A DNA stretch of 64,000 nucleotides from Escherichia coli (GTDB lineage: Bacteria; Pseudomonadota; Gammaproteobacteria; Enterobacterales; Enterobacteriaceae). A program made the translations under genes and the position numbers. The notes beneath the pieces are model-generated. The model did no database searches and was not told the DNA's origin. It saw only the letters and a list, made by a program, of their open reading frames with translations. The DNA lies in assembly GCF_044324785.1 (NCBI RefSeq), contig NZ_CP172127.1; one strand, 5' to 3'. This document shows positions 27,751 through 39,062 of this stretch, piece by piece (positions within the stretch are counted from its first letter, which is position 1; every line of letters starts with the position of its first letter).

Positions 27751-27931
27751 TTGCGTATAGATTGAGCAAATCCCAAATAGCCGTTAAAATTATATGCATT
27801 ATCACGCCGACAGGTGCATTACACGATGTCACGGTAGCGCCTGTACGGTAAACTATGCGGGTTTACGGTCAGTACCCACATAAATTGTGTGGTCTGGTCT
27901 CAATTTATTGACGAAGAGGATTAAGTATCTC

Positions 27932-28249
27932 ATGGCTGAATGGAGCGGCGAATATATCAGCCCATACGCTGAGCACGGCAAGAAGAGTGAACAAGTCAAA
28001 AAGATTACGGTTTCCATTCCTCTTAAGGTGTTAAAAATCCTCACCGATGAACGCACGCGTCGTCAGGTGAACAACCTGCGTCACGCTACCAACAGCGAGC
28101 TGCTGTGCGAAGCGTTTCTGCATGCCTTTACCGGGCAACCTTTGCCGGATGATGCCGATCTGCGTAAAGAGCGCAGCGACGAAATCCCGGAAGCGGCAAA
28201 AGAGATCATGCGTGAGATGGGGATTAACCCGGAGACGTGGGAATACTAA
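27932..28249 (+). CDS. metJ: methionine repressor (ribbon-helix-helix)
   Basis: ORF 27887-28249; canonical Met[36 protein letters not shown] begins at ATG 27932 (105 aa). Confidence 0.96.
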
Positions 28250-28308: not shown

Positions 28309-28917
28309 ATGAAAATCAGGCTACTGATCCTCAGCCTGCTGGTTTCTGTGCCTGCATTTGCCTGGCAACCACAAACCGGCGACATCATCTTTCAGATCTC
28401 TCGCTCATCGCAAAGTAAAGCGATCCAACTGGCGACCCATTCCGATTACAGCCACACCGGTATGCTGGTGATACGCAACAAAAAGCCCTACGTTTTTGAA
28501 GCGGTCGGCCCGGTGAAATACACCCCGCTCAAGCAGTGGATTGCCCATGGTGAAAAGGGCAAATACGTTGTTCGCCGCGTTGAAGGCGGACTGAGTGTTA
28601 AACAACAGCAAAAACTGGCGCAAACGGCAAAACGTTATCTCGGCAAACCGTATGATTTCAGCTTCTCATGGAGCGACGATCGCCAGTACTGTTCGGAAGT
28701 GGTGTGGAAGGTTTACCAGAATGCGCTGGGAATGCGCGTGGGCGAACAGCAAAAGTTGAAAGAGTTCGATCTGAGTAACCCGCTGGTTCAGGCAAAGCTC
28801 AAAGAACGTTACGGCAAGAATATTCCGCTTGAGGAAACGGTGGTCTCGCCACAAGCCGTTTTCGACGCGCCACAACTCACCACGGTTGCCAAAGAGTGGC
28901 CGCTGTTTTCGTGGTAA
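28309..28917 (+). CDS. yiiX: putative lipid-binding hydrolase (NlpC/P60-like, DUF830), signal peptide
   Basis: 202-aa ORF MKIRLLILSLLVSVPAFAWQPQTGDIIFQ; synteny downstream of metJ. Confidence 0.9.
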   Translation: MKIRLLILSLLVSVPAFAWQPQTGDIIFQISRSSQSKAIQLATHSDYSHTGMLVIRNKKPYVFEAVGPVKYTPLKQWIAHGEKGKYVVRRVEGGLSVKQQQKLAQTAKRYLGKPYDFSFSWSDDRQYCSEVVWKVYQNALGMRVGEQQKLKEFDLSNPLVQAKLKERYGKNIPLEETVVSPQAVFDAPQLTTVAKEWPLFSW

Positions 28918-29021
28918 TGGATGATAAAAAAATAATTCCCGCCGTAGTCTGTTTGTTGCTTTGTAGTTGCACGACCTTTCCGCAAGCTGTCGCTCCGGTA
29001 AACGGTGATGCCTCCAATTAG
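28917..29021 (+). pseudogene. possible 5' fragment of a small lipoprotein-like gene truncated by the IS1-like element
   Basis: ATG overlaps the yiiX stop (taATGg); encodes MDDKKIIPAVVCLLLCSCTTFPQAVAPVNGDASN (hydrophobic stretch plus Cys) then runs into the IS1 left end at 29004. Short and speculative. Confidence 0.25.
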
Positions 29022-29766
29022 TTGAATTAAGGATATAATACTCGCTTCTAAGGTTGTTTCATGGTCACAGTTAACCTTCATTGTCCCCGTTGCCAGTCCG
29101 TTTAGGTTTACCGTCACGGGCAGAACCCCAAAAGACATGATCGATTCCGCGGCCGTGACTGTCACCGGGTATTTCAGCTCAGTTACTGTTACGAGCCCCG
29201 TAAACCGGGAGTTAAAGACCAAATCGCTGAAATGGCTTTCAACGGTGCCGGGGTTCGCTATACTGCCCGTACGCTGAAAATCGGCATTAATACAGTCATC
29301 CGAACTTTAAAAAACTCTCGCCACGAAGAATAACGTCATCCCCGGTCGCTCATGCTGATGTGGCACTCAACTGCGAACTTAGTCAGCAATGGAGCTTTGT
29401 CGGCAGTAAAGCGCGACAGCACTGGCTCTGGTACGTGTACAACACGAAAACTGGTGGTGTTCTGGCCTACACTTTTGGCCCCCGGACTGATGAAACCTGT
29501 CGTGAATTGCTGGCGCTGCTTACCCTTTTACCATCGGCATGTTGACCACTGACGAATGGGGTAGTTACACCAGAGAGTTACCAAAGGAGAAGCATCTGAC
29601 TGGTAAGATTTTTACTCAGCACATTGAGCGTAACAATCTGACCCTGAGAACCCGAATCAAACGTCTGGCCCGCAGAACCATCTATTTCTCGCGTTCTGTA
29701 GAACTTCATGAAAAAGTCATCGGTGCTTTTATCGAAAATATATGTTCTACTGATTGGAGTCATCAC
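29004..29766 (+). mobile_element. IS1-family insertion sequence, degenerate (insA disrupted, insB frameshifted)
   Basis: Left end ggtgatgcctccaa and right end ttggagtcatcac resemble IS1 terminal inverted repeats; ~763 bp; internal ORF fragments resemble InsB. No obvious flanking target-site duplication. Confidence 0.8.
29360..29763 (+). pseudogene. insB: IS1 transposase insB, frameshifted
   Basis: InsB-like peptides in two different frames (29360-29545 WSFVGSKARQHWLWYVY...; 29539-29853 DEWGSYTRE...IERNNLTLRTRIKRLARRTIYFSRSVELHEKVIG); the upstream insA frame is interrupted by a stop. Confidence 0.75.
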
Positions 29767-29866
29767 TCTTCTGATGAGCTTTCCTTGGATGATTACCAGA
29801 CTGAATACACAGCCAAAGATTTTTACCTCATTCTGCTCTTTTTTCTCAAATGACATATATTATATT

Positions 29867-30145
29867 TTACATCATATTCATAGGCATATGACATTCCCCC
29901 GCCCCCATTATGTCATTGTGGGTTGATGTTGGGCTTTCATAAAAAAATACATCTTTTTTTGAACTAGCATTAATTATATTTACTTTATACATTAAAATAT
30001 TTTCTCCATCTGGAAATATTTTAGCCACACAATATAAAGCAGCTAAATCCGAATTACTTAAAAATATATTGTCATCACTCATAACTCCAGCCATTAAATG
30101 ACTGGAGACTAAAGCAAGGAAATAACAACATTGTATTGCCTTCAT
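29867..30145 (-). CDS. candidate Rhs immunity protein (RhsI) for the orphan CT module
   Basis: Small AT-rich ORF immediately downstream of the orphan rhs-CT stop (30206); internal start at 30145 (MKAIQCCYFLALVSSHLMAG...) preceded by SD aagggag; ORF track's longer version starts at 30181. Function inferred from position only. Confidence 0.55.
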   Translation of the reverse strand: MKAIQCCYFLALVSSHLMAGVMSDDNIFLSNSDLAALYCVAKIFPDGENILMYKVNIINASSKKDVFFYESPTSTHNDIMGAGECHMPMNMM

Positions 30146-30205
30146 TTTAATTACTCCCTTGCCTGATAATTGTAACTCCATTCCCTTTAGCTTTGGGATT
30201 ATATT

Positions 30206-31636
30206 TTAGATAGGTGTTATTTGGTGTTCCCAAGTAACTACTGTATTCTTTTTTTCCATTCCATTCATATAAGAATTCGTTAAATCTTTGCTTGAAAAAT
30301 TTAGACTATCATAAACATCATTTTCTTTTGTTACTTTATTTCCTTTATCGTCAGAGTAAAAACCGTGAGTGTGATAATCGCCTACTCTCTCTGAACCTTC
30401 AGGGCGTTTTATATTTCGCAAGTCTACACTATCATTATCATTTGAACTTATCGGATTCATGGGGGAATATTCACCTTGCTTCTTACATATTAGTCCACCA
30501 TATTCTTTATTCTCGTTAATTGATTCTCCATTACACATTGCCAATGCAAATATTCCAATATCATCTATATTTTTTGATTTAAATTCATATAATCCTAATG
30601 GATCCATGCCATTCACCGGGCTCAGCGGATATGTATACAGGTTCCATCCCCCCTTCAGCCCAATCGGATCCTGAGTGATATACCGCCCCTGCAGCGGGTC
30701 ATAATAGCGGTGGCGGTTGTAATACAGGCCGGACTCCTCATCATACTGCTGCCCCGGCAGGCGGATGAGCTGCTGCAGTTGATGCGGGTTCTCTTCATTC
30801 AGCAGATTGCCCCACTCATCGTATTCTGCGCACCATTCTGTTGCCCCTTCCGTGCTGACAAGCGCCAGCGGCAGGCCGCGATGGTCGCAGTGGTACAGGT
30901 GGATTTTTCGCGCCGGCGTGTACACCGGGTCCATCTGGTTTTGCATCTGCTCCACCGTCAGGCCGCACGATGCCAGCCAGCGGCGGCTTTCCTCACTCAC
31001 CCGGTCAGCCAGGATTTCACTTTCCAGCCGGTCGAGCATCTGCACCAGCACCGGCGGGAACACCACACTGCCACCGTCTTCACCGCCGGACTGCTGAAGC
31101 GCATCCGCCAGGCTGCGGCGCTGCGTTTTCGCCAGCTCACCGGTGGCGGTTTCGACCCTGATGAGTGGCGTGAAGCTCCCCGGCTGATAAACCGTCTGGA
31201 TGCGGGTTCTGTCGTTCTGTATCGTGGTCAGCCGGTCGCCGTCCCAGCCGTACCAGGTCACTTCCGGTTTCCGTGACAGCGACATCCAGCCCGTCAGGTC
31301 CCGTTCACGCCGCCACACCCGTTTTGCCACCCTGCGGCCCAGCGGGTCGTAAAGATAGCGACTTTCGACCAGCGGCTCTGCATATTGTGTCCGCGTGTAG
31401 TGCACCAGCCGGTGCTGACTGTCGTAATGGTACCGGTGAGTCCGCTCATCATCCGTGCGGATAACCCCTTCCGGGATGAGGTCGGTTTTCTCTGTCAGCC
31501 TGCCGTGACGGTCATACCGGTAAAGATAGTGCGCGTCACGGGCGATACGGTTATCCGGCCACATGCTGAGGGTGCTGTCCGGGTGCAGCTCCGGGTCGGG
31601 CAGGCGGTTGCCTGCCGGGTCCGTGGCATACGGGAT
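30206..31636 (-). CDS. orphan Rhs C-terminal module: 3' part of the rhs core plus a distinct C-terminal toxin domain (5'-truncated gene)
   Basis: ORF 30206-31564 (452 aa); Rhs-core homology continues upstream to ~31636 with an in-frame stop beyond. Core ends with ...[28 protein letters not shown] (DPxGL), followed by a 127-aa unique AT-rich C-terminal domain ([10 protein letters not shown]...[12 protein letters not shown]...). Confidence 0.8.
30642..31636. repeat. ~1 kb direct repeat (rhs core 3' region), copy A, near-identical to 34963-35957
   Basis: Base-by-base comparison of the two intervals shows the same sequence with only a handful of substitutions at a constant offset of 4321 bp; the ORF track shows identical antisense peptides at 31273-31464 and 35594-35785. 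Confidence 0.9.
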
Positions 31637-31678
31637 ATCAATGCCCAGGTTACATATAATAAGAGCAATTAACTTAAT

Positions 31679-32005
31679 TTATTTGTTTATAATGCGCTTA
31701 CTTAATACAAACCATTGAATATACCCTCCTGACAGAAAATAAAGCCATGTTATTATCGCCATAATATACTTACTATCAATCCTTACGCCAATAATGTCTG
31801 AAACAGTCCCTATAAATATTAGAGCAATAAAGAATACTATGCCTGTTGGAAAACATATTACCATCATTCCATAAGACATGAGACTAATTAACTCGCTCAC
31901 ATCACGAGTGGAGTCTAATAGTGAAAGTCTATGCATGGAAAAGAATAGTATTAAAAGCGATAAAGCCAGCCATGTAGCTCTGAATAAAAAAATAATACAT
32001 TTCAT
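31679..32005 (-). CDS. small hydrophobic membrane protein (about 3 TM segments); candidate orphan immunity protein
   Basis: 108-aa AT-rich ORF MKCIIFLFRATWLALSLLILFF... between the H-repeat element and the orphan rhs fragment; function inferred from context only. Confidence 0.45.
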   Translation of the reverse strand: MKCIIFLFRATWLALSLLILFFSMHRLSLLDSTRDVSELISLMSYGMMVICFPTGIVFFIALIFIGTVSDIIGVRIDSKYIMAIITWLYFLSGGYIQWFVLSKRIINK

Positions 32006-32039
32006 TACATCACTCCGGTGAATACAAATCTAATAAAGC

Positions 32040-33330
32040 GTCCAATGTTATTTCCGGAGCACTTCATCTTACATGTTTCTAAAGAATCATTAGACCAGTC
32101 AGGGCAAGATTACGAAAGCCCGCTCCCCGCAAGGACTGACGCGAGATAGTTTCTGTCCATGGCTGCTTTTCGCATCTTACGTCTTAACCCTGCCTTGAAT
32201 ACCTTATCATTCGTCAAAATATTAATAGCAATGTGCCGTATCCCTGAAAATAATTCTGCTGCGTTTCCTCTTCTTATTTTGCAGTCGTCTTCATTCATTA
32301 CCACGTCCAGACGCCAGTGCAGCTTATTCTCCACGTGCCAGTGGTTTCGGATTGCTGTGGCGAACTTCTCAGCGGTTAAATCAGCAGAACTGATATAATA
32401 TCTGACCGTCATTTCTGGCTCTTTCTTTTATTCTGCTATTATTGACCGAAAGGAGACTGCCACGCATAATTTTTCAGTCCTTTCTATTCAAATGTAAAAT
32501 CAATAAGTTCATCAGCGACATCGCAAACAATATGAAGACGGATTTCTTCTCTGCCGTGACTCTTTTCACTAATTGCGTAACTGTCATGCTCTGGATTATT
32601 TAATTCTTTCAGCGGAAATGTTTCCTCAAAGGCTTTATTCAACCGCCCCTGGTTTCCTTTTACAGCGAATAAGTAATCACCACCCTGTTTTTGTATCTTC
32701 TCTGCAATATCTTTCTGGCAACCTATCGCATCAGTTGTGATGATTTTCCCTTTAATATACAAAATGTTAAGAAGTTCAGGGATAGCTGTGATCTCATTAG
32801 ATTTCTCATCCGTCCTGATCTGCCCCAGGACCAGAATGTGCATTGTTGAGAACGCACTAATAACATGAATCGCTCCCCTTCGGCGACTCTTATCATAAGA
32901 GTGTCGGAGCATTTTTCCATCAATTGCAATGACGTCTTTATCATCTGAAGAATGGCAGTCACGCATCCAGTTAATAAAGCACTCATGAAATTTTGCAGGG
33001 CTGATACAGGATACAACTCTGGCAATGGTATCGTGGACAGGAATACCATTTTCAAAATCACCGTATTGTTTTAAAAAATCGAGATGTGTTTCCCCAAAAT
33101 CCTCTATATCTTCCCAACCTTCTGCACCCGAAATAACGGCACAAATAGTCAACAGTAGAATATCCGATAATTTATGTTCCACTTTCCAGGCTTGTCTGTA
33201 ATCGGGGATAATAGAAATATGCTCCATCAATTTTTTAAGTTCCATTTTGTTCTCCTTAATTATGTAAGGAGTATTTGATCATGTATAAGCAATAAAAAAC
33301 AGCTTTAGGTAATGAGGAATATCTCAATTT
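32040..33330 (-). mobile_element. H-repeat (H-rpt) element, ISAs1-family, with a frameshifted transposase; boundaries approximate
   Basis: Two consecutive minus-strand ORFs in different frames (32484-33245 [55 protein letters not shown]...; 32110-32412 [44 protein letters not shown]...) together resemble the ~378-aa H-repeat-associated ISAs1-family transposase of E. coli Rhs elements. Confidence 0.8.
32110..33245 (-). pseudogene. ISAs1-family (H-repeat) transposase, split by a frameshift near 32413-32486
   Basis: N-terminal 253-aa and C-terminal 100-aa pieces are in different reading frames separated by ~70 bp. Confidence 0.8.
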
Positions 33331-33348
33331 TCAAACATAAAATGCGAA

Positions 33349-33935
33349 TTATTTAGTACAAAAAAGCAGCGTTACGTGATCTTTCCCTGGCATGTCATTA
33401 GATGAACCAGTTATACAACCCTCGGAACAGAATCGAGGTCCTAAAGACGGACCAAAAGCGTTTAAACAACTATGTATTGAAAATCCATTACGATTATAAG
33501 TTCCTGTATTAACTGACGGTACTAATCGTATGCCGTCAGGTTTTCTATTGCTTGCTCCCGGGTCATTAACATTCCAACTCCATAGGCCTTGAGGTATTGG
33601 CCCTCTATTTATAAATGTGTACAACGGGGATTATTTTTACATTGCATATTATTACCAGAAGCGACTGGAATACTAAGCACATCATAAAAATTATCATCAC
33701 CTGGTATATCTGAAACACACGAAAGCATACCTAAAGTTATGCTGTATAAACAGGTGGCTAATCCCAAGGGGATCGATTCCAGAAATCGGGTTCAACGGAT
33801 ACTGATAAAAATTCCACCTACCTTCCAGCCCAATCGGAGCCTGAGTGTTATACCGCCCCTGCTGCGGTTAATGTTACCGATAATAGTTATAGTACAGCCC
33901 TGATTCATCATCATACTACTGCTGCGGCAGTCTGA
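33349..33935 (-). pseudogene. degenerate orphan rhs remnant (diverged core 3' end plus disrupted C-terminal region)
   Basis: 33800-33935 is a diverged, indel-containing copy of the rhs core 3' end (compare 34963-35100); downstream frames are interrupted; the 91-aa ORF 33349-33624 is in a different frame. Confidence 0.6.
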
Positions 33936-33948
33936 TGAATTATTGCTT

Positions 33949-34410
33949 TTACGGATTCTCCTTATTCTTCCTTCTATCCATTCGCTTTAGCTTTTTGAGA
34001 TCTTGAAGTTTGCTCTTTGCATCAATATTACCGTTATTTACAGCGAATTCCATCCAATAAATAGCTTTATTCAAATTATAATGTTCTGATAATATTGGAT
34101 TTGTATCCGATAAAAAAACCCCATAATTAAACTGCGCTGTAACATTCCCCTGAGATGCTGATCTTTCTAAGTATCGCAATTGTTTGTAAATGTTATTTTT
34201 AGTAAAGCAGTAATATTGATATAGTCGAAATGATGCCTCTGAATCACCATGTTGTGATTTATACTTCAGTTTCATCAACTTTTCTTCACTTAAATCATAG
34301 GTCATTGCTGTAGACCCCATCATACTTTCGTTTTGTTTTATTTTCACATCAGCACCATGCAATTGAAAAATAAAAGAAAAATAAAAAAATAGTAACAAGC
34401 ATGCTTTCAT
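33949..34410 (-). CDS. Sel1-like repeat protein with N-terminal signal peptide; candidate cognate Rhs immunity protein (RhsI)
   Basis: 153-aa AT-rich ORF starting 12 bp downstream of the main rhs stop; signal-like N-terminus MKACLLLFFYFSFIFQLHGA; Sel1/TPR-like motifs (...YQYYCFTKNNIYKQLRYLERSASQGNVTAQFNYGVFL...). Confidence 0.65.
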   Translation of the reverse strand: MKACLLLFFYFSFIFQLHGADVKIKQNESMMGSTAMTYDLSEEKLMKLKYKSQHGDSEASFRLYQYYCFTKNNIYKQLRYLERSASQGNVTAQFNYGVFLSDTNPILSEHYNLNKAIYWMEFAVNNGNIDAKSKLQDLKKLKRMDRRKNKENP

Positions 34411-34421
34411 ACATCTACAAC

Positions 34422-37400
34422 CTATCTTATATCACTGGGTTTTTCTGGCGTACCTTGCATATTAGAAATGGGGTGCCCAGATGGCCCATATGTTATCCAA
34501 TTACCAAGGTCTTTTGTTGTTATAGCCATTAGATCCTTATTTGAATTAAGGTTCGTTGGTGCTGTTAGCACTGTATCCATTTTTAACTTACCATTAGTTC
34601 CTCGCCCCCACCACGTCCATAGCGTGTCAGGTCCTATTACATTTGTATGTAACTCTTTAGCTAATTGGCTAGCAAATGAATTTTGTCCTTTACCTGTATT
34701 ACAAGAAAATAACCAAACTGTCATCCCATCTTTATAATTCCCATCAAATTTAATTAGATATGCTAGATCTTTAGCTGTCATGATACTGCGCGTTGCGGAT
34801 TCAATAGATGTGGGGGTACCATGCCCCCCGATTGTGAAAACGCCTGGGATATTAATCTCATCAGCTACAGAATGGATAAGATCACTTTCGGGGTATAAAT
34901 TTATATCAACCAAACCTTGCGGATCTACATTTATGACCGGATTCAACGGATACTGATAAAAATTCCATCCCCCCTTCAGCCCAATCGGATCCTGAGTGAT
35001 ATACCGCCCCTGCAGCGGGTCATAATAGCGGTGGCGGTTGTAATACAGGCCGGACTCCTCATCATACTGCTGACCCGGCAGGCGGATGAGCTGCTGCAGC
35101 TGGTGCGGGTTCTCTTCATTCAGCAGGTTGCCCCACTCATCGTATTCTGCGCACCATTCTGTTGCCCCTTCCGTGCTGACAAGCGCCAGCGGCAGGCCGC
35201 GATGGTCGCAGTGGTACAGGTGGATTTTTCGCGCCGGCGTGTACACCGGGTCCATCTGGTTTTGCATCTGCTCCACCGTCAGGCCGCACGATGCCAGCCA
35301 GCGGCGGCTTTCCTCACTCACCCGGTCAGTAAGGATTTCACTTTCCAGCCGGTCGAGCATCTGCACCAGCACCGGCGGGAACACCACACTGCCACCGTCT
35401 TCACCGCCGGACTGCTGAAGCGCATCCGCCAGGCTGCGGCGCTGCGTTTTCGCCAGCTCACCGGTGGCGGTTTCGACCCTGATGAGTGGCGTGAAGCTCC
35501 CCGGCTGATAAACCGTCTGGATGCGGGTTCTGTCGTTCTGTATCGTGGTCAGCCGGTCGCCGTCCCAGCCGTACCAGGTCACTTCCGGTTTCCGTGACAG
35601 CGACATCCAGCCCGTCAGGTCCCGTTCACGCCGCCACACCCGTTTTGCCACCCTGCGGCCCAGCGGGTCGTAAAGATAGCGACTTTCGACCAGCGGCTCT
35701 GCATATTGTGTCCGCGTGTAGTGCACCAGCCGGTGCTGACTGTCGTAATGGTACCGGTGAGTCCGCTCATCATCCGTGCGGATAACCCCTTCCGGGATGA
35801 GGTCGGTTTTCTCTGTCAGCCTGCCGTGACGGTCATACCAGTAAAGATAGTGCGCGTCACGGGCGATACGGTTATCCGGCCATGCGCTGAGGGTGCTGTC
35901 CGGGTGCAGCTCCGGGTCGGGCAGGCGGTTGCCCGCCGGGTCCGTGGCATACGGGATGCGGATATCAAGGTTCGCTGCCGTGGTGTGGACGCCGGTCAGC
36001 CTGCCGGTGTCGCTGTAGCTGTAACTCCGGGTCTGGCGCGGGCTGCTGATGCGGATGAGTTCGCCGTTGTCGTTCCAGGTGTAATCGCGGTCATACTGCA
36101 GGCTGTTCAGGTGCTGGCTCTGTAACTGCCCGGCAGGGGTGTAAGCGGTGGTGAGTTCATAACGGCCGAAGCTGCGCAGCGTTTCCCGGTGCAGGCGGTC
36201 GCGGGTGTACTCCACCAGCGGTGTGTCGCCGAGTTTCATGCCTGCCAGCCAGCCGCTGCCGTAAGTCAGCCATTCCACGGCGGGCAGGCTGTCCGGTATA
36301 CAGCGGTTCGCCAGCCCCTGCGCGTTGTACGCATGTCTGGTCTCATGCTGCCAGACCAGTGCTTCCGTCTGCGGGTGATGCACCGTCTGGCGCTCACCGG
36401 TCAGGCGGCCTTTCTCATCATACCCGTAATGCACCGTCACCCGGTGGCCTTCGCTGAGATGGCTGATGCCTGTCAGCCAGCCGCGTTCGTCATACTGCCA
36501 CTGCTCTGCAGGTTCACCCTTCACGGTACGCTGCGTGATGCGGTCTGCTTCGTCATAGTGCCAGTGGGTGACCAGCCCCTCATCCTCGCTGCGGATAAGT
36601 TTGCCGGTCAGGTCGTGGTGATAACGCTGTGTACGGCCGTCAAAGCCGGTTTCCTGTATCAGACGGTCAAGTACATCGTAACGGAAGGTGGTGTGGCTGC
36701 CGTTTTCACTGGTCAGGCGGATGACCCGTCCGGCAGCATCGTATTCCATACTGCGCGTCAGACCACCCTGCGTGGTACGGATGGCCTTTCCCCACGTATC
36801 GTACTGTGTCCCGTTTCTGCTGCCGTCCGGGGCAATGACGGCGGTCAGGTCACCGGCGGCGTTGTATTCATACCGCGTTTCATGGCCCTGCATGTCTTTC
36901 ACCGCAATTAACTGTCCACGGCTGTCGTATGCGCGGTACTGGCTCAGGCCTTCCTCGCGGTGCACCGCCGTCACCTGACCAAAACGGTCATGGTCATAAC
37001 GGGTTACATAACCGGAACAGTCAGTGACGGTCAGCAACTGACCGTAACGGCTCCATGTCATGGTTTTCCGGCTGCCGGTGGCATCTTCCGTTGCGCAGGG
37101 TAAGTCACTGTGTGGATTATCATAACGGTAGCGGGTGATATCGCCGTTGTGTGCGGTTTCCTGAATCAGACGGCCGGATTCATCATATTCCCGGCGCAAC
37201 TCCAGCCCGTCAGTCCCGGTGGCTGACGTTAACTGGTTGTGGTGGTTATAGTAAAACGCCGATGCCCTGCCATCCGGTGTGGTGATGCGCGTGATGAGTC
37301 CCGTCACCACATCCGGGCTGTACTCAGTCGTCCGGCCTGCGGCATCCGTCTGTGCCTTAAGCCTGCCCACCGCGTCAAACTGACTCTGCGTGACGCTGCC

Positions 37401-38810: not shown

Positions 38811-39062
<252 letters not shown>

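Follow-up and report, generated by a model that had tools for sequence, protein, structure and literature searches.

The window analyzed here, a 64,000-nucleotide stretch of Escherichia coli DNA (contig NZ_CP172127.1 of assembly GCF_044324785.1), contains an Rhs array between rpmE and yiiX (b3936-b3937), a known Rhs position (PMC3032704), and all of its Rhs components lie on the minus strand (Table 1). Read along that strand, the array consists of a full-length rhs gene, a yibG-type gene, a degenerate Rhs core remnant that leads into the pseudogene of a Tlde1-type toxin tip, a copy of the H-repeat element (H-rpt), the last codons of an RhsC-type toxin tip, the gene ybfB, and a further, displaced orphan. 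An earlier reading of this DNA (the original prediction) had picked out three of these objects, namely, the core remnant with its tip, H-rpt, and a 108-residue open reading frame (ORF) with about three transmembrane segments, and had proposed that the tip and the ORF were an ancestral toxin/immunity pair that was split by insertion of H-rpt, the toxin then decaying while the immunity gene was kept. The three objects are real, lie on the minus strand, and had been placed about where we find them. The history that we favor is a different one: H-rpt very probably marks the junction of two unrelated, separately truncated Rhs toxin/immunity modules, in a block that was then displaced into the rpmE-yiiX locus.

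Results

The Upstream Flank of H-rpt Matches the rhsA Locus of O157:H7

Upstream of H-rpt, the window (38652-33390) and the rhsA locus of E. coli O157:H7 run collinearly (97.1% identity over 5,263 bp), and the match ends exactly at H-rpt. At the rhsA locus, in O157:H7 as in many other strains, the order is main Rhs, yibG, degenerate Tlde1 tip, and Imm57 pseudogene. The core remnant has retained a PxxxxDPxGL-type end motif at ∼33774 despite its in-frame stops, the tip behind it has a guanine-plus-cytosine (GC) content of 39%, and the two together match, in degenerate form, the orphan-module feature of a partial core with the end motif followed by an AT-rich tip. Once its lesions are repaired, the window tip is matched by the profile of Tlde1, an L,D-transpeptidase-like effector domain of type VI secretion systems (Pfam Tlde1_dom, PF10908; E = 1.2e-6, compared with 8.5e-8 for an intact homologue) and also, weakly, by YkuD (E = 0.06); the intact homologue is named "tlde1 domain-containing protein" by the NCBI Prokaryotic Genome Annotation Pipeline (PGAP). 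The tip ends at 33390. The interval given for it in the original prediction (33349-33935) does contain the degenerate core and tip, and only its end has to be moved, as its final 41 bp are the left inverted repeat of H-rpt; the same repeat makes up the last 13 codons of a 91-residue ORF at 33349-33624.

H-rpt cuts off the final 19 codons of the tip. Copies of the tip that are not cut by H-rpt, in the O157:H7 rhsA locus and in two other loci, have these 19 further codons and then run into an Imm57-family immunity gene, not into a homologue of the membrane protein as the one-pair history would have it; after the window tip, this Imm57 partner is absent, and H-rpt stands there instead. Alignment with an intact allele shows three lesions in the window tip: one inserted nucleotide (before DPLG) and two deletions, of 9 nt and 1 nt. 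The stops in the core remnant and the frameshifts in the tip are identical in the O157:H7 rhsA-locus copy, which lacks H-rpt and is the one copy, among ∼3,500 near-identical tips, in which the lesions were compared; the decay of the tip therefore does not follow from a split by H-rpt. The Tlde1 tip is found in 3,685 of the 5,426 complete E. coli genomes that form the set for all distribution counts reported here, with at least 95% identity to the window tip in ∼3,500 genomes and 80-90% identity in ∼174, and two 87%-identical copies that were inspected are both intact.

The Imm57-family gene is itself annotated as frameshifted or with an internal stop in three of three loci (L003:4445-4961; L004:6436-6957, from O157; and L005:4445-4966, from strain EC19), including two in which the Tlde1 toxin ORF is intact. 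In the rhsA locus of EC19, an intact H-rpt lies directly upstream of an intact Tlde1 orphan, with its right end abutting the core remnant (L005:2607-4440). An H-rpt is found in this position in 77 genomes (EC19 and 76 similar ones), and H-rpt copies thus flank the Tlde1 orphan on different sides in different lineages.

The Downstream Flank Matches the 3' End of rhsC and ybfB

From the exact end of H-rpt onward, the window (32106-30615) is collinear, at 97.5% identity, with the 3' end of K-12 rhsC, ybfB, and the orphan core that follows (b0700/b0702 region), the shared part comprising ybfB, 95 bp before it, and ∼1.07 kb after it. Unlike K-12, where these genes lie in the kdp-ybfA locus, the window at rpmE-yiiX lacks the entire Rhs shell and the first 119 of the 150 residues of the RhsC C-terminal toxin tip (RhsC-CT), and has the H-rpt end instead. 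The last 31 residues remain, and their TAA stop shares one base with the ATG of ybfB (TAATG), as in K-12. This remnant is a "hypothetical protein, missing N-terminus" in the PGAP annotation. The ybfB module has neither a core nor a PxxxxDPxGL motif, only the 31 tip codons preceding ybfB. The stop codon of the H-rpt transposase (TAA, 32112-32110) is in frame with the RhsC-CT remnant, and PGAP thus starts the remnant right after the transposase; the shared frame, to be expected in one case in three, is probably due to chance.

The 108-residue ORF of the original prediction is YbfB. The frame is intact and has a GGAG ribosome-binding site, and the protein, with about three hydrophobic stretches, carries 3 substitutions in 108 residues relative to the K-12 form (Y3C, I11T, I86T). 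In genomes with the same arrangement, the PGAP name of the orthologue is YbfB; no Pfam or NCBIfam family covers the protein, and no PDB entry matched its sequence. Exactly the window allele is recorded for 198 E. coli contigs, and among the matches listed for it, six of six loci have the gene order of the window beside yiiX and metJ. In each of the 10 loci examined, the ybfB ORF is uninterrupted, and at least one carrier of the layout (CFSAN061763) has a single ybfB place in its genome.

Elsewhere, ybfB is found with RhsC-CT. In K-12, it directly follows an intact rhsC, with a 1-nt overlap. A block made up of the rhsC 3' end and ybfB is present at a coverage of at least 80% in 2,650 genomes, with rhsC and ybfB annotated together in the matches listed. 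In orphan arrays of Salmonella enterica, a 63%-identical YbfB homologue comes directly after an 83%-identical RhsC-CT homologue, and a small ORF again follows a second full Salmonella copy of RhsC-CT. Both families are narrow, essentially limited to Enterobacteriaceae, and always stand in an Rhs context. Homologues of the 108-residue ORF are thus neighbors of Rhs toxins, as had been anticipated, and this conserved gene order makes YbfB a credible immunity candidate for RhsC-CT. In the window, the toxin that belongs with ybfB breaks off exactly where it meets H-rpt, which leaves ybfB as a toxin-less ("orphan") immunity candidate. The notion of a retained orphan immunity gene is to this extent borne out, with RhsC-CT, and not the degenerate tip, as the toxin that was lost.

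As the flanks of H-rpt belong to two different toxin/immunity pairs, the Tlde1 tip and ybfB would never have been partners. The proposal of a single orphan pair, split by a simple H-rpt insertion and then reduced to its immunity gene by decay of the toxin, is in keeping with the physical order of tip, H-rpt, and membrane-protein ORF on one strand, which is real, and with the orphan pairs disrupted by insertion sequences (ISs) that are known from contact-dependent growth inhibition and Rhs loci (PMC3150448). We nevertheless regard it as refuted: the two toxins have uninterrupted forms elsewhere (Tlde1 followed by Imm57, RhsC-CT followed by ybfB), a 31-codon piece of RhsC-CT lies between H-rpt and ybfB, the Tlde1 tip and RhsC-CT have no significant similarity (BLASTP E = 0.38), and the lesions of the tip are shared with a copy free of H-rpt.

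A Predicted Fold for the Lost RhsC Toxin

RhsC-CT has no sequence relatives in Pfam, NCBIfam, or the PDB, in which matches are confined to the end of the Rhs core. An AlphaFold (AF2) model based on 13 homologues reached a predicted local distance difference test (pLDDT) score of 73, and Foldseek searches with this model returned the same fold in Rhs tips of distant bacteria, together with weak PPPDE and amidase matches. Residues H10, H30, and C118 are invariant across the 13 homologues, and C118 begins a helix in the model. Together, these results suggest that RhsC-CT may be a papain-like cysteine hydrolase, a class that takes in permuted NlpC/P60, LRAT/PLAAT, and PPPDE enzymes, with H10, H30, and C118 as candidate catalytic residues. 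It would possibly act on membrane lipid or the cell wall, a target in keeping with an immunity protein that sits in the membrane. The boundary with H-rpt lies two residues past C118; lacking all three predicted catalytic residues, the RhsC-CT remnant of the window cannot be toxic if the prediction is right.

Table 1. Features of the rpmE-yiiX Rhs Array and Its Neighbors, in Window Coordinates
Feature	Position	Strand	Basis
metJ, neighbor beyond yiiX	27887-28249	plus	window ORFs
yiiX, neighbor on one side	28309-28917	plus	window ORFs
IS1 remnant, frameshifted, IS1H-like, between dsORF-f3 and yiiX	29000-29849		
dsORF-f3, immunity candidate for CT-f3	29867-30181	minus	PGAP "RHS element protein dsORF-f3"
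Displaced orphan: 1,022-bp core fragment (31636-30615) plus DUF4329-type tip CT-f3	30206-31636	minus	
ybfB, intact, 108 residues, predicted inner-membrane protein	31679-32005	minus	comparison with K-12 YbfB; PGAP
RhsC-type toxin tip, 3' remnant, last 31 codons (DWSNDSLETCKMKCSGNNIGRFIRFVFTGVM) plus stop	32005-32099	minus	match to K-12 rhsC
H-rpt, ISAs1 family, ISEc1-like, 1,290 bp	32100-33389	minus	NCBIfam NF033564; inverted repeats
Tlde1-type toxin tip, pseudogene	33390-33765	minus	alignment with intact and O157 copies; Pfam
Degenerate Rhs core remnant with in-frame stops	33766-33936	minus	alignment, 78% identity to Rhs core ends
yibG-type Sel1-repeat protein, 153 residues	33949-34410	minus	PGAP yibG / sel1 repeat family protein
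Main rhs, full length, 1,409 residues	34422-38651	minus	ORF; PGAP "RHS element core protein" in the same arrangement
rpmE, neighbor on the other side	38811-39023	minus	
priA, neighbor on the other side	from 39154	plus	

The main rhs gene at the head of the array is composed of a core with 62% GC (38651-34936) and an AT-rich toxin tip with 39% GC (34935-34422), for which the yibG-type Sel1 protein is the immunity candidate.

H-rpt Is a Dead Copy at the Junction

The H-rpt copy resembles ISEc1 in its length, its inverted repeats, its ISAs1 transposase, and its place beside Rhs tips, which H-rpt is known to accompany (PMC3032704). At 1,290 bp it falls within the range of the ISAs1 family (about 1.2-1.5 kb), and its ends (CAGGGAAAGATCACG... 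and ...CGTAATCTTGCCCTG) form inverted repeats that start with CAGGG and agree at 13 of 15 positions. The NCBIfam ISAs1 transposase model NF033564 matches both pieces of the transposase ORF (E = 2.9e-85 and 1e-27). The H-rpt copy differs from intact ISEc1 copies, which measure 1,291 bp, by ∼4-5% divergence and by a single indel (alignment column 918), a 1-nt deletion that splits the transposase into pieces of 253 residues (33245-32484) and 100 residues (32412-32110). In the comparison with strain KE55, one 130-bp patch of H-rpt holds 11 differences. The window H-rpt is a dead, fixed scar and not an active element.

A target-site duplication was sought at the window H-rpt and none was found. Three control copies of H-rpt (ydcC, the EC19 rhsA copy, and K-12 ybfL) likewise have none, so the missing duplication says nothing on simple insertion. 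We also considered TCTAATGA / ACTGGT, present near both flanks, as microhomology or a target preference and rejected it: the likeness is no better than chance, as 20% of random pairs of 40-mers drawn from this AT-rich DNA score equally well, and the geometry differs between the two sides.

The 2.4-kb layout of tip remnant, H-rpt, and ybfB recurs in 149 of the 5,426 genomes, which shows that it is not a product of chance, and PGAP annotates the same parts in genomes that share it. Strains KE55, C1, and CFSAN061763 are among the carriers. Each of the two H-rpt junctions is present in 148 genomes (148 and 148). The two flanks of H-rpt are not contiguous in any genome examined, which argues against simple insertion into one gene pair. 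Reciprocal and parental junctions were searched for with synthetic chimeric queries, and neither reciprocal junction (one linking the 5' part of RhsC-CT to the left end of H-rpt, the other linking the right end of H-rpt to the 3' part of the Tlde1 tip) is contiguous in any of the 5,426 genomes. "Full-coverage" matches to the chimeric queries were rejected as junctions, being made up of two separate pieces ∼500 bp apart.

We propose that an H-rpt-associated rearrangement joined a block of the rhsA-locus type to a block of the rhsC-locus type and removed all that lay between. The upstream block would have contributed the main tip, yibG, and the already-degenerate Tlde1 orphan tip, which would in the process have lost its last 19 codons and Imm57; from the downstream block would have come the terminal 31 codons of the RhsC toxin together with its partner, ybfB, and the beginning of the orphan core fragment that follows.

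How H-rpt came to stand between the two blocks can be pictured in two ways. It is quite possible that H-rpt inserted once, into a longer array of orphans (Tlde1 tip, Imm57, core fragment, RhsC-CT, ybfB), and that a deletion running from one of its ends then took away Imm57 together with most of RhsC-CT. Such a history, with a single insertion and a single deletion within one lineage, would fit the strict co-occurrence of the two junctions (148/148) and the lack of reciprocal junctions. Against it, no array was seen in which a Tlde1 orphan precedes an RhsC-CT/ybfB orphan, adjacent deletion is not known from elements of the ISAs1 family, and H-rpt transposition is reported never to have been observed (PMC3032704). 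The alternative, which we regard as possible if somewhat doubtful, is that H-rpt inserted independently into the Tlde1 tip and into an rhsC-type tip and that homologous recombination between the copies, both in one chromosome or with incoming DNA, then produced a hybrid-flanked H-rpt. H-rpt copies are indeed common in these arrays: in 77 genomes, one immediately precedes the Tlde1 orphan. The 2.4-kb query, which includes H-rpt, is matched at a median of 9 places per genome, and in one genome a left H-rpt end lies no more than ∼500 bp downstream of the site at which RhsC-CT is cut, where the annotation reads rhsC and ybfB. Yet neither a parental insertion nor a reciprocal product appears among the 5,426 genomes, and a comparison with five other H-rpt copies, in itself a weak test, gave no clear switch between a left and a right parent within the element.

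The Block Probably Entered the Locus by Displacement

Compared with the simple form of the locus in strain N3, the window contains one extra block of 4,321 bp, bounded by a direct repeat of 1,022 bp of core sequence (35957-34936 and 31636-30615, 98.0% identity). The distal module of DUF4329 tip and dsORF-f3 is present in 2,169 genomes, and in most of the matches listed it forms the tip of a full-length rhs gene at rpmE-yiiX. E. coli W and Crooks have one rhs gene and no additional tips at this position (PMC3032704). In KE55 and two further genomes whose wider context was checked, the layout lies at rpmE-yiiX in every case.

We suppose that recombination within the conserved core brought the 4.3-kb block into an Rhs locus of the simple form at rpmE-yiiX, where the DUF4329 tip and dsORF-f3 already in place would have been shifted downstream to become a new orphan. 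The model of Jackson et al. (2009), in which single-crossover integration of a core-bearing circle leads to C-terminal displacement (PMC2935791), predicts just such an extra block with a flanking core repeat, and the window agrees with that model and with Rhs position 10 (rpmE-yiiX) in its site, its core repeat, and the downstream location of the former tip, with no difference of substance. The IS1H-like remnant occurs in simple and extended forms of the locus alike, and the IS1 is therefore older than the added block. Relative to KE55, the window lineage has a 1-nt deletion in a G-run in each of the DUF4329 tip (30206-30330) and dsORF-f3 (29867-29900); both have frameshifted C-termini as a result, and this pair is also decaying.

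Expression of and Selection on ybfB

In the present-day locus, the Tlde1 tip and H-rpt are dead, and of the RhsC-CT/YbfB pair only ybfB is intact. If read-through from upstream transcribes it, the gene could offer protection from E. coli armed with RhsC, roughly half of the species. A promoter scan returned 13 promoter-like sites, compared with 10 expected, and a terminator scan returned no minus-strand terminator-like site in 31500-34500. Internal promoters inside rhs 3' regions have been described in a paper on "RhsF/RhsFI" of enterohaemorrhagic E. coli (PMC7618764); the identification of that system with the present locus was considered and rejected, as it lies at a different locus, S-loop 44.

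Between the two lineages that carry the layout, ybfB has three non-synonymous differences and one synonymous difference, and the adjacent pseudogene tip has no changes in 547 bp. Across 38651-29867, the same two lineages show no differences in the main tip (514 bp), the Tlde1 tip (547 bp), or the RhsC-CT remnant, and differ by 2.6-2.9% in both core copies and by 1.9% in H-rpt. This mosaic divergence suggests gene conversion among the repeated Rhs and H-rpt sequences.

Several observations weigh against our interpretation of the junction and of ybfB as an orphan immunity gene. No intermediate or parental arrangement was found, and we infer both the order of events and the type of event at H-rpt; transposition of H-rpt has reportedly never been observed (PMC3032704). 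A literature search found no experimental paper on an immunity function of YbfB. The promoter scan shows no promoter-like site in the 95 bp kept upstream of ybfB, and a binding peak of RNA polymerase reported for K-12, ∼130 bp upstream of ybfB (PMC5493296), lies in the part deleted here. Finally, three non-synonymous differences and one synonymous difference, against none in the neighboring pseudogene, give no sign of purifying selection on ybfB.

It is accordingly a serious possibility, if short of probable, that ybfB in the window is a silent hitchhiker, neither expressed nor protective, and is intact because it is short and the event recent. The loss of the native upstream toxin sequence, including the reported polymerase-binding region, the lack of a nearby promoter-like site, and the pattern of substitutions would all be expected of such a gene, and the distal orphan pair is also decaying in the window lineage. 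On the other hand, the ORF is intact in 10 of 10 loci and has kept its ribosome-binding site, it lies on the same strand as the upstream genes with no minus-strand terminator-like site intervening in the scanned interval, the cognate toxin module is common enough (2,650 genomes) for protection to be useful, and orphan regions can yield orphan immunity proteins (PMC3150448).

Discussion

The components of this array and their combination are already known: the association of H-rpt with Rhs tips, orphan displacement, the rpmE-yiiX locus, and the rhsC-ybfB and Tlde1/Imm57 modules. The window is apparently a multi-orphan form of the RhsF element, of which most genomes (∼2,000) carry the simple one-tip form; that the locus is RhsF is our assumption from the PGAP name "dsORF-f3". 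RhsF is said to have been described by Zhao and Hill in 1995 under the heading of a "reshuffling of Rhs components".

The orphan immunity genes of type VI secretion systems and polymorphic toxins (in Vibrio cholerae, Serratia, and Bacteroidales) resemble ybfB in being immunity-type genes without a functional toxin, in species where the toxin is common. The difference from those systems is that ybfB is known here from its sequence and carries no signal of purifying selection. A more far-reaching interpretation would be that H-rpt-associated truncation is a recurrent, selected route that strips Rhs toxins and keeps their immunity genes, that the resulting blocks spread from one Rhs locus to another by core recombination, and that YbfB, made by read-through from the dead H-rpt, shields the ∼3% of lineages that carry it from RhsC; we consider this improbable. 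If it were true, the target of the shielding would be an uncharacterized papain-like hydrolase with a membrane-embedded immunity protein, carried by about half of the species.

The result carries little weight beyond correct bookkeeping. It does show that adjacency across an IS in an Rhs array is no evidence for a cognate toxin/immunity pair. Rhs arrays are mosaics produced by displacement and IS-associated rearrangement, so partners are to be assigned by comparison with uninterrupted loci. For E. coli, the ∼150 complete genomes in which ybfB has outlived its toxin are a possible natural test of orphan immunity, and the predicted fold provides a lead to the RhsC toxin as a candidate papain-like cysteine hydrolase that may be paired with a three-helix membrane immunity protein.

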